DNA from: Escherichia coli
GTDB lineage: Bacteria > Pseudomonadota > Gammaproteobacteria > Enterobacterales > Enterobacteriaceae
Reading direction: 5' to 3' (one strand)
DNA length: 64,000 bases
NCBI RefSeq assembly: GCF_044324785.1
Contig: NZ_CP172127.1
Below are positions 53,821 through 57,566 of this stretch, piece after piece (the first letter of the stretch is position 1; each line of letters begins with the position of its first letter). The position numbers and the translations under genes were made by a program. The notes under the pieces are model-generated. The model saw nothing but the letters and a program-made list of their open reading frames with translations. It was not told the DNA's origin and searched no databases.

Positions 53821-54501
53821 TCACCCACTGTGGTATATGCGTTGCGGTCTGCCAACTTTGCCGTGAACAATTTCAGCAATAATCAGATGGCGGCTGGCGC
53901 AATATTCAAGATAACGTCTGGCAGTGGTGCGGCTGATAGTCAGTGCCTGCGCCACCGTTTCTGCCGTATGTTGCACACCAGGCTCTTTAAACAGTTTTCG
54001 CACTGCGTTTAGCGTCAAGGGGTCAATGCCGGTCGGCAGTTCGTCTTTGGGTTCACCGCGAGCATAGGCATTAAACATCTCATCAATTTGCTTCTGGCTG
54101 GCGCTATCAATACTTTCCAGCATATGTTTACGCTGGCGGAAGCGGGTTAGCGTTTGCCCCAGCCGTTCATAGGCAATTGGCTTAATGAGATAATCAAATA
54201 CACCACAACGTACGGCTTCAGACACCGTTTCCATATCACTGGCTGCAGTGGTAAACACCACGTCGCCGGGATAATGCGCCTGCACCAGTTCATGCAGTAA
54301 ATTAATCCCTCTACCGTCAGGAAGATAGTTATCAAGCAAGATTAGCCCCGGCTTAAAACGCTCGATCATCATTCGGGCCTGCGCCAGGTTTCCCGCCAGT
54401 AATATCTGACTGAATCCGGGAATGTGACGAATATATTCCGCATGCATCTCTGCCAGCGGCGTTTCGTCCTCAACGATCAATAGGGTTAATGGAGCTGTCA
54501 T
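53821..54501 (-). CDS. dpiA: Response regulator DpiA (CitB)
   Basis: 226-aa ORF, receiver domain with phospho-acceptor Asp context (LILLDNYLPDG) and C-terminal HTH. Confidence 0.94.
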   Translation of the reverse strand: MTAPLTLLIVEDETPLAEMHAEYIRHIPGFSQILLAGNLAQARMMIERFKPGLILLDNYLPDGRGINLLHELVQAHYPGDVVFTTAASDMETVSEAVRCGVFDYLIKPIAYERLGQTLTRFRQRKHMLESIDSASQKQIDEMFNAYARGEPKDELPTGIDPLTLNAVRKLFKEPGVQHTAETVAQALTISRTTARRYLEYCASRHLIIAEIVHGKVGRPQRIYHSG

Positions 54502-56128
54502 TAGGTTTCACTTTCGGAATATAGATTGAAAATAAGGTACCGCAGGGATCATTATCTTCGAGAGTGATAACACCACCGCAGCGCGTTACGTAGCTGGCAA
54601 TCAAGTACAACCCAATGCCATGTTCGCCGGGCTCGTCAGCACGCGTACTGACACCCTGCTCAAATATTTTGTCTCGTAGAGACTCTGGAACGCCGCAGCC
54701 CTGATCGGCGACTTCAATCACCACATCATCGCCTTCATCGCTGAGGAATAATTCAACGATCTTGTTTCCTTCATCGCTACGTAGGCTGGCTTCGAAGGCG
54801 TTATCAAGTAAATTGCCAACAATGGCTGCAAACTCGGTGCTGTCCAGTCCTGGCGGCAGTTGCGAAAGCTGACTTCCGGGGACGATGACCATTTTTAGCC
54901 CCAGTTCGCGGGCGCGCTGCACTTTACCAAAAAGCAGCCCCGCCACCTGGCGATCGGCAAACGCCTCGCGCAGGCTATCAATAAGCTGTTGCTGGGCCTG
55001 AGACTCCCCCTGCACCATCGCCAACACGCGATCATACTCTTTCATCTGCAACAGACCATTGAGCGTCGACATCCAATTGAGATGCTCGTGTCGCAATGTG
55101 CGCAGGCTCTCGACGTATTGTTTAATTTGCGTCAGTTGCGCATTGAGGGTGGATATTTCGTCTTTACTACGAAAGCTGATAATGGCCCCCAGCAAATCAT
55201 CACCTGAACGAATAGCTTCCCGGTTGGCAATAACGCTCAGACCGTTAAAGTTCGCCACCACATCCTGACGTTTTTCATCAATCTGTTCGGTAAAGAAATC
55301 GGCGGGCCTGACCACTTCAGCAATGGGTTTACCCAACCATTGCCGTCCGGGGGAACTCAGACCCAGCATCTTTCTTGCGTTACGATTGATGGCGGTAATG
55401 TAACCATGCGGATCCACCGCAATGAGCCCTTCATAAACCGAACTAAACAGCGCCTCTTGCTGACGGACCACGCGTGCGATTTGCTTTGGCTCCATGCCCA
55501 TCATCTGCCGACGGATATGCGCGGCCAGGAACCACGATAGCAACATCAGAATCCCTAACAGCACGACAAACACGCCAGCCATCGGTAATAAAAACTCAGC
55601 CCGCCAGCTATCAATTTTACTCACCAGGTAGCCAATCGACACCACGCCGATGACTTTTCCATCGTCATCAAAGATTGGCGTTTTGGCACGCATCGCCATG
55701 CCAATTGACCCTTTCCCGGTGATGAAGTAGCTCTCTCCTTTCTCCAGCGCGCCCGGTTTGGTGAACTGCATAGGATAACCAATTTTCTCCGGATTAGGAT
55801 GGTAAAGACGAATCGAGTGCCGATCGCCAATCACCACATAATCAAAATCGGTATCTCTTTGTAATTTGTTAGCGATGGTCGCCAGCCTCTTGTAGTCACG
55901 CGTTTTCACTGCGCTGATGATACTGTCATTAGAAGCAATAATTTTTGCCTGATTCATTGCCATGTCGCGCACATGAAGCGTTAAATAGTCCTCAAAACTG
56001 GCCGTAAAATATTGCGCCAGGGCTGCAATGACAAATATTGAGAACACCAGAATCAGCAAAAAGATACGCAGCGGAAATGCCAGTCTTTGGAAAAATGCAA
56101 ACTGTTTATTCTCGTTAAGCTGCAACAT
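54470..56128 (-). CDS. dpiB: Sensor histidine kinase DpiB (CitA)
   Basis: 552 aa from MLQLNENKQF; two TM segments, periplasmic domain, PAS, H-box and ATPase domain; 32-nt overlap with dpiA. Confidence 0.93.
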   Translation of the reverse strand: MLQLNENKQFAFFQRLAFPLRIFLLILVFSIFVIAALAQYFTASFEDYLTLHVRDMAMNQAKIIASNDSIISAVKTRDYKRLATIANKLQRDTDFDYVVIGDRHSIRLYHPNPEKIGYPMQFTKPGALEKGESYFITGKGSIGMAMRAKTPIFDDDGKVIGVVSIGYLVSKIDSWRAEFLLPMAGVFVVLLGILMLLSWFLAAHIRRQMMGMEPKQIARVVRQQEALFSSVYEGLIAVDPHGYITAINRNARKMLGLSSPGRQWLGKPIAEVVRPADFFTEQIDEKRQDVVANFNGLSVIANREAIRSGDDLLGAIISFRSKDEISTLNAQLTQIKQYVESLRTLRHEHLNWMSTLNGLLQMKEYDRVLAMVQGESQAQQQLIDSLREAFADRQVAGLLFGKVQRARELGLKMVIVPGSQLSQLPPGLDSTEFAAIVGNLLDNAFEASLRSDEGNKIVELFLSDEGDDVVIEVADQGCGVPESLRDKIFEQGVSTRADEPGEHGIGLYLIASYVTRCGGVITLEDNDPCGTLFSIYIPKVKPNDSSINPIDR

Positions 56129-56188
56129 TGTTTTCCTTGCGGGTTGTCCCGAGCCTCTTTGACGAATGTAATTAAAATGTTGAATCAA

Positions 56189-56507
56189 AATACATAGATA
56201 TTAAATATAATCGTGGCAAATTTTATTCATTAAATCAATTAAATCACTTAAACCTGCGGGTCATTTCGTAATTACATTAATTAAAAAACTTAAAACCATT
56301 AAATAAATAAAAAACCACTAACTCTATGTGAAATAAATCAAAATTTCACGCTGCAATACTCCTTAGGATGTATAGCGAAAGGAGAAAAAGATATACCTCG
56401 ATCGCCCCCCTTTCTCCCAAGTGAAAATAAAAGGTTATCAGTTTGCAACATCGAACAACATTCGTTGCAAATCGATAACAACATGCACCTTCAGGATACT
56501 ATTTATT
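56189..56507. promoter_or_regulatory. Divergent dpiB / citC control region, AT-rich with short direct repeats
   Basis: About 320 bp intergenic with repeated CATTAAAT / TTAAATCA motifs (for example near 56239-56265). Confidence 0.5.
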
Positions 56508-57566
56508 ATGTTCGGCAATGATATTTTCACCCGTGTAAAACGTTCAGAAAATAAAAAAATGGCGGAAATCGCCCAATTCCTGCATGAAAATGATTTGAGC
56601 GTTGACACCACAGTCGAAGTATTTATTACCGTAACCCGCGATGAAAAGCTTATCGCGTGCGGTGGAATTGCCGGAAATATTATTAAATGCGTTGCTATCA
56701 GTGAATCCGTTCGCGGTGAAGGACTGGCGCTGACATTAGCCACCGAGCTAATTAACCTCGCCTATGAGCGGCACAGCACGCATCTGTTTATTTATACCAA
56801 AACCGAATACGAGGCGCTGTTCCGCCAGTGCGGTTTTTCCACGCTGACCAGTGTACCCGGCGTGATGGTGCTGATGGAAAACAGCGCCACGCGACTGAAA
56901 CGCTATGCCGAATCGCTGAAAAAATTTCGTCATCCAGGGAACAAGATTGGCTGCATTGTGATGAACGCCAATCCCTTTACGAATGGTCACCGTTATCTGA
57001 TTCAACAGGCTGCAGCACAGTGCGACTGGCTGCATCTGTTTTTAGTTAAAGAAGATTCTTCACGCTTTCCCTATGAAGACCGGCTGGATCTGGTGTTAAA
57101 AGGCACCGCCGATATTCCACGCCTGACTGTGCATCGCGGCTCCGAATACATCATCTCCCGCGCTACGTTCCCTTGCTACTTCATTAAAGAACAGAGCGTC
57201 ATTAACCATTGTTACACCGAAATTGATCTGAAGATTTTCCGTCAGTACCTCGCTCCCGCGCTGGGTGTAACTCACCGCTTTGTCGGTACTGAACCCTTTT
57301 GTCGCGTTACCGCCCAGTACAACCAGGATATGCGCTACTGGCTGGAAACGCCGACTATCTCCGCACCGCCCATCGAACTGGTTGAAATTGAGCGGCTGCG
57401 TTACCAGGAGATGCCGATATCCGCTTCCCGGGTACGTCAACTGCTGGCGAAAAACGATCTCACGGCTATCGCGCCGCTGGTCCCTGCAGTCACGCTGCAT
57501 TATTTGCAGAACCTGCTTGAGCACTCCCGCCAGGACGCGGCAGCTCGTCAAAAGACCCCCGCATGA
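56508..57566 (+). CDS. citC: [Citrate lyase] ligase CitC
   Basis: 352 aa from MFGNDIFTRVK; track ORF extends 29 codons upstream from a GTG. Confidence 0.92.
   Translation: MFGNDIFTRVKRSENKKMAEIAQFLHENDLSVDTTVEVFITVTRDEKLIACGGIAGNIIKCVAISESVRGEGLALTLATELINLAYERHSTHLFIYTKTEYEALFRQCGFSTLTSVPGVMVLMENSATRLKRYAESLKKFRHPGNKIGCIVMNANPFTNGHRYLIQQAAAQCDWLHLFLVKEDSSRFPYEDRLDLVLKGTADIPRLTVHRGSEYIISRATFPCYFIKEQSVINHCYTEIDLKIFRQYLAPALGVTHRFVGTEPFCRVTAQYNQDMRYWLETPTISAPPIELVEIERLRYQEMPISASRVRQLLAKNDLTAIAPLVPAVTLHYLQNLLEHSRQDAAARQKTPA

Follow-up and report, generated by a model that had tools for sequence, protein, structure and literature searches.

Tandem same-orientation ATTAAA units between dpiB and citC as the probable operator of the citrate-responsive regulator DpiA in Escherichia coli and related bacteria

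At the mae promoter of Lactobacillus casei, MaeR protects three tandem 8-bp repeats, 5'-TTATT(A/T)AA-3', and MaeKR belongs, together with E. coli DcuSR, to the citrate family of two-component systems (PMC5457438). The first and second of these repeats are separated by 1 bp and therefore have a 9-bp period, the same as that of the ATTAAA units that we describe here between dpiB and citC of E. coli. The two sites are also alike in being built of AT-rich tandem direct repeats, in having three units per site, and in occupying a promoter region from which sensor/regulator genes and catabolic genes diverge, whereas they differ in the unit itself (TTATTwAA for MaeR and ATTAAAnn in E. coli), in their blocks (a single block of three units for MaeR and two blocks, of three and five units, between dpiB and citC), in the phylum of the host, and in the effector, which is malate for MaeR. 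What we found in E. coli is in keeping with a citrate-family (CitB/DcuR/MaeR) operator, in that DpiA consists of a receiver and an HTH_64 domain and its presumed target holds at least three AT-rich direct repeats with a 9-bp period.

A regulator of orthologous type is CitB of Klebsiella pneumoniae, whose targets are reported (Meyer, Dimroth and Bott 1997; Meyer et al. 2001) to be A+T-rich, to lie between divergent citrate-fermentation operons, and to involve CRP as a co-activator. The K. pneumoniae locus is of the citS-oadGAB-citAB type, while that of E. coli has dpiBA. The DpiA (CitB) region of E. coli K-12 (Yamamoto et al. 2008/2009; Scheu et al. 2012) is the same locus as the one analyzed here, with nothing substantive different. 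The literature already covers the dpiB-citC region with its DpiA site, and both are curated in EcoCyc/RegulonDB, so that they represent no new biology, and the possible increment is confined to a description at the level of single units and to the parallel with MaeR. No paper came up in a full-text literature search with the sequence of the operator, and we put forward only tentatively that this operator may so far have gone undescribed at the level of its units, that is, as a unidirectional 9-bp array of three plus five ATTAAA units that occurs Enterobacterales-wide and reflects a binding mode common to the family.

The region lies in a window, by which we mean the whole stretch of 64 kb of E. 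coli DNA that was analyzed. A 441-bp query around the control region had matches in 5419 of 5426 complete E. coli genomes, and strain 18KM2445, which is 100% identical over the stretch, has dpiB and citC annotated on both flanks. By the RefSeq annotation of this identical strain, the dpiB (citA) start codon is at 56126 to 56128 on the minus strand, and translation from the ATG at 56128 gives a protein of 552 amino acids with MLQLNENKQF at its N terminus. On the other side, the annotated citC start codon is at 56508 to 56510 on the plus strand, where the translation opens with MFGNDIF, and is preceded by a ribosome-binding site, CAGGA (56490 to 56494, plus strand), that is conserved in the alignments. 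The divergent intergenic control region thus spans 56129 to 56507, or 379 bp, with its left boundary set by the dpiB ATG at 56128 and not by position 56188, where a mechanically called open reading frame (54470 to 56188, minus strand) begins with a TTG codon and runs 20 codons longer than the conserved and annotated gene. The boundary at 56189 in an earlier note on this DNA derives from this TTG-initiated reading frame; it falls within the actual intergenic region, 60 bp from its dpiB end.

That the region is a control region between the divergent dpiB and citC genes, as the earlier note had proposed, is borne out by how the genes are annotated in both the identical strain and K-12. It had further been described as about 320 bp long with more than 70% A+T; the AT-richness is real, but the length was too short, and the composition was slightly overstated, as A+T amounts to 69.6% for 56189 to 56507 and 68.1% for 56129 to 56507, against a window mean of 49.4%. 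Higher values are reached in the core, with 76.7% for 56189 to 56360 and 79.4% for 56219 to 56320. The K-12 counterpart (L088) occupies 651,857 to 652,234 of the K-12 genome, is 378 bp long, and shows 10 differences from the 379 bp of the window, including a 1-bp indel at 56404.

Within this core, the earlier note had pointed to three 8-mer repeats. Two of them recur in the region, CATTAAAT at 56228 and 56297 and TTAAATCA at 56230 and 56239, while CTTAAAAC is present as a single copy (56289) and the shorter CTTAAA in two copies; the real repeated element proved to be the core TTAAA. This pentamer occurs eight times on the plus (citC-sense) strand, at 56172, 56201, 56230, 56239, 56248, 56281, 56290, and 56299, and not once on the minus strand. 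Dinucleotide-preserving shuffles gave a mean of 2.7 copies (P = 0.0014) and never reproduced the 8:0 strand asymmetry, and the four pairs of TTAAA at exactly +9 bp compare with 0.013 expected (0 of 5000 shuffles). The cluster between dpiB and citC is the densest of its kind in the 64-kb window.

Seen at this resolution, the region holds head-to-tail units of the form ATTAAAnnn (consensus ATTAAAnmm) that share one orientation and a 9-bp phase and are grouped into two arrays on the plus strand. Array T1 (56229 to 56255) consists of three tandem 9-bp units, ATTAAATCA, ATTAAATCA, and CTTAAACCT, and array T2 (56271 to 56315) consists of five, namely, ATTACATTA, which is degenerate, ATTAAAAAA, CTTAAAACC, ATTAAATAA, and ATAAAAAAC, which is again degenerate. 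The third T2 unit (56289 to 56297) reads CTTAAAACC in the window strain and CTTAAAATC in K-12. Between the arrays lies a spacer of 15 bp (56256 to 56270) that is G+C-richer, variable, and poorly conserved. Together, T1 and T2 comprise eight units of the same orientation over 87 bp, at about 652,049 to 652,136 in K-12; from the start of T1 to the start of T2 there are 42 bp, and one repeat family (D1) accordingly shows a 42-bp offset followed by 9-bp steps. When the 64-kb window was scanned with a position weight matrix derived from these units, triple 9-bp arrays were found only at T1 and T2. The earlier suggestion that the repeats are half-sites therefore holds as far as the repeats are concerned, but they are not the halves of a dyad; they are tandem direct-repeat units of 9 bp in a single orientation.

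The arrays are conserved well beyond E. coli. A scan of our genome collection for CitC gave 80 loci, 51 of them with a divergent dpiB homologue, and 52 intergenic regions including that of the window were compared. At least one forward triple array was present in 40 of the 52 dpiB-linked regions and a reverse triple array in none; the 12 regions in which the strict triple array was absent came mostly from distant genera (Edwardsiella, Limnobaculum, Pragia, Leminorella, and Erwinia/Pantoea). Measured from the citC ATG, the arrays lie at about -280/-271/-262 and -230/-221/-212 in Escherichia, Citrobacter, Salmonella, Intestinirhabdus, Hafnia, Buttiauxella, and Atlantibacter, and Providencia keeps them at the same distance even though its DpiB is only 60% identical. 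Among 23 representative intergenic regions, pairs of TWAAA numbered 71 at a lag of 9 bp, 41 at 18 bp, and 19 at 27 bp, while the complementary word or strand gave about 0 pairs at the same lags.

Base by base, T1 and T2 are the best-conserved noncoding blocks over more than 14 genera. In the tier 1 alignment (Escherichia, Citrobacter, and Salmonella), the majority-base fraction is 0.89 for T1 and 0.93 for T2, against 0.61 for the intervening spacer and about 0.6 for other variable stretches, and in tier 2 it is 0.86 for T1 and 0.55 for the spacer. A part of T2, AATTAAAAAACTTAAAACCAT, does not vary among 15 sequences from Escherichia, Citrobacter, and Salmonella, and the first T2 unit, degenerate in the window, is a full TTAAA unit in Citrobacter. 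Two intergenic regions are enlarged, that of Intestinirhabdus alba (L020) to 556 bp and that of a Citrobacter metagenome-assembled genome (L018) to 514 bp; when L020 was aligned, the extra DNA was found on the dpiB-proximal side, and since the arrays of both regions keep their distance from the citC ATG, the geometry of the arrays appears to be constrained relative to citC and not to dpiB. Conservation that is specific for base, strand, and phase points to a sequence-specific protein, as generic AT-richness would not give such a pattern.

The obvious candidate for this protein is DpiA, and we consider it highly probable that the repeats are the operator of this citrate-responsive regulator (CitB), shared by the dpiBA and citCDEFXGT operons. 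DpiA is encoded in the window at 53821 to 54501 on the minus strand and has Pfam matches to Response_reg (1.5e-19) and to HTH_64, the 'DpiA-like' helix-turn-helix (1.6e-48). A secondary account (PMC10610042, after Scheu et al. 2012) places the DpiA binding site 190 to 280 bp upstream of the ATG of citC; in the window this interval corresponds to about 56228 to 56318, and T1 and T2 (56229 to 56315) fill it. The same publication reports an amoxicillin-selected 1-bp deletion at -193 (PMC10610042); its position corresponds to the A-run in the final unit of T2. In a study of the Citrobacter rodentium citC promoter, to which DpiA operator sites taken from EcoCyc were aligned, the whole intergenic region without dpiAB was still citrate responsive in an E. 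coli host, and a truncated PcitC made with primer DTR305, which anneals at CATCTAACTCTTTGTGAAATAAATCAAA, gave no citrate response (PMC12405535). The DTR305 primer sequence corresponds to about 56316 to 56343 of the window, immediately after T2. The earlier proposal that the repeats are DpiA recognition elements is thus supported by the published interval, by the C. rodentium truncation, and by conservation over more than 14 genera.

The same note had suggested searching for the motif at other DpiA targets, and here the arrays did not reappear. In K-12, no double or triple phased arrays were present upstream of appY, mdh, or exuT or in oriC, and none was present in the pSC101 origin region; all of these have been reported as DpiA targets or binding regions. 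Either DpiA binds these regions differently, or the minimal element that it recognizes is something other than the array.

Other conserved elements surround the arrays. Just downstream of T2 is a CRP/FNR-family-like box, TGTGAAATAAATCAAA, at 56327 to 56342 (center, 56334.5), all 16 columns of which are invariant in the 15 tier 1 sequences. As TGAAAnAnnTCAA, it persists as far as Providencia and Moellerella, and the Moellerella sequence reads TTGA-N6-TCAA. The box is a hybrid whose left half (GTGA) resembles a CRP site and whose right half (ATCAA) resembles an FNR site, and it lies 29.5 bp upstream of a -10-like hexamer. It differs from TGTGA-N6-TCACA by 1 mismatch, and such matches occur at chance number within the 64 kb. 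The hexamer, TAGGAT (56364 to 56369), belongs to a conserved block, TACTCCTTAGGATGTA (56357 to 56372, plus strand), and in distant genera takes the forms TACGAT, TACTAT, TATTAT, and TAATAT. From this TAnnAT hexamer, citC transcription is predicted to start near 56376, which would center the CRP/FNR-type box at -41.5, where the site of a class II CRP/FNR-dependent promoter would be looked for, and place T2 at about -105 to -61. A strict scan for sigma-70 promoters and terminators from 56050 to 56600 found nothing; as no strict sigma-70 match is to be expected for activator-dependent promoters, the promoter positions given here were assigned from conservation only.

The block TACTCCTTAGGATGTA also differs by 2 mismatches from the NarL/NarP 7-2-7 pattern (TACYYMT-NN-AKRRGTA), and matches of this quality are again found at chance number within the 64 kb. 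Nitrate inhibition and cross-regulation of citC by NarL have been reported, and a NarL/NarP-like site at this position would fit the reported nitrate inhibition. Since neither the CRP-like nor the NarL-like match exceeds chance by itself, both draw their support from conservation and from the literature, according to which cAMP-CRP, FNR, and NarL act on citC.

On the dpiB side, two further blocks are conserved. Block B1, TGTAATwAAAATGTT (56167 to 56181), contains a solitary unit, ATTAAAATG (56171 to 56179, plus strand), and may overlap or contain the dpiB -10 element (TTTAAT on the minus strand); an ArcA-like reading of B1 was rejected, as the pattern match is at chance frequency. Block B1b, GATCGTkrCAgATT (56209 to 56222), lies between T1 and this dpiB-proximal block. 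A second solitary unit, ATTAAATAT (56200 to 56208, plus strand), is restricted to Escherichia, with no conservation in other genera.

These elements lead us to suggest a mechanism in which phosphorylated DpiA (REC plus HTH_64) would bind as an oligomer, head to tail along the units. T2, just upstream of the CRP/FNR-type box at 56327 to 56342 and of the presumed activator-dependent -10 element, would activate citC, probably in cooperation with this box, and T1, which faces the dpiB promoter, might serve autoregulation. Which protein sits on which unit and in what stoichiometry, where transcription starts, and how T1 and T2 divide the labor between them are what we infer from the arrangement.

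This division of labor could also be drawn differently, with phosphorylated DcuR on T1 (or on the solitary units and B1b) acting on dpiBA and phosphorylated DpiA on T2 acting on citC, as in a cascade from DcuSR through CitAB to the cit genes. A DcuR binding site reportedly precedes citAB, and citC expression is said to be reduced in dcuS/dcuR mutants, so that the arrays, T1 most plausibly, may be partly DcuR's or shared. The nonconserved spacer, which puts T1 and T2 out of 9-bp register (42-bp offset), would suit two occupants, as would the position of T1 nearer dpiB and of T2 nearer the citC core promoter. However, the units of T1 and T2 have one common consensus, and between dcuB and dcuR, where a DcuR site is to be expected, a scan with the unit matrix gave no similar array. 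The DpiA interval (-190 to -280), as given in the secondary account, also covers both arrays. We regard such a split between the two regulators as unlikely, and T1 as a DcuR site would be compatible with DpiA as the main regulator of the operator.

It is much less probable that the region mainly serves as a nucleoid-protein scaffold, in which AT-rich and possibly curved DNA would attract H-NS, IHF, or Fis and the repeats would be a by-product. The local A+T content of 77 to 79%, compared with a window mean of 49%, speaks in favor of such a role, as does a reported RpoS holoenzyme gSELEX peak in the dpiB-citC spacer, which shows that the AT-rich DNA at this place attracts proteins in vitro. Against it, the IHF consensus WATCAANNNNTTR has 6 matches in the window and none within 56129 to 56507, and our literature search found no paper with H-NS or IHF data naming the dpiB-citC locus. 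Moreover, the arrays are conserved over more than 14 genera with an exact 9-bp phase and with base and strand specificity, while neighboring AT-rich stretches drift, and a 9-bp phase would be unlike the phase of about 10.5 bp of planar A-tract curvature. The idea of a nucleoid-protein target, also raised in the earlier note, thus found no support, and conservation of this kind fits a sequence-specific regulator instead. Finally, short AT-rich words recur readily and several of the two-copy repeat families are probably due to chance, but functionless low-complexity repetition as an explanation of the arrays is effectively refuted by shuffles that never give four +9 pairs or an 8:0 strand asymmetry, by the 9-bp lag signal, and by an array position and orientation that are deeply conserved across genera.

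Downstream of the predicted start, the presumed citC leader contains the conserved block TGAAAAyAAAAsGTTATCA (56421 to 56441, plus strand) and two further conserved blocks, CAACA (56456 to 56460) and AACAA (56476 to 56481). It also contains an imperfect inverted repeat, GTTATCAGTTTGCAAC / GTTGCAAATCGATAAC (56434 to 56479, plus strand), just upstream of the citC ribosome-binding site, with 16 nt of 88% complementarity and 14 nt between the arms, and the E. coli sequence folds as a hairpin. This hairpin is Escherichia-specific and is not maintained in Citrobacter or Salmonella. RNAalifold found no consensus pairs in 18 sequences, so the leader blocks are conserved without conserved RNA pairing, and the sole match in an Rfam scan (E <= 1) was a spurious one to a eukaryotic scaRNA, far below threshold. 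A structured leader or riboswitch was rejected, as the hairpin is confined to Escherichia, shows no covariation, and has a fold z-score of -1.5, which is not unusual.

If the reading at unit resolution is true, head-to-tail oligomers would spiral round the DNA, each unit being rotated by about 50 degrees with respect to the helix, and one asymmetric operator would serve two divergent promoters. The region drives dpiBA as well, and DpiA, a product of this operon, has been linked to beta-lactam-induced SOS responses. The map of units and of the other conserved blocks could be of use for point mutagenesis or for the design of citrate biosensors.

The link between the arrays and the dpi genes can also be followed in citC loci of other kinds. 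Among the citC loci obtained, none was of the K. pneumoniae citS-citC type, and one (L068) had a co-directional transporter gene upstream of citC. Of the citC loci, 27 had no detectable dpiB, and only one of these had the arrays, that of Enterobacteriaceae bacterium RIT693 (L045; 1729 to 3000), where a dpiA homologue (71% identity) is directly divergent from citC. This locus retains both arrays, the CRP/FNR-like box, and the -10 element, and may be a case of an orphan regulator. Separately, the scan returned a 484-bp contig labeled Terrisporobacter mayombei (L079), whose citC fragment is 99% identical at the protein level to CitC of the window, and a contig labeled Chryseobacterium sp. 18061 (L032) with an enterobacterial-type citC (77%); both look like contamination or mislabeling in public assemblies.
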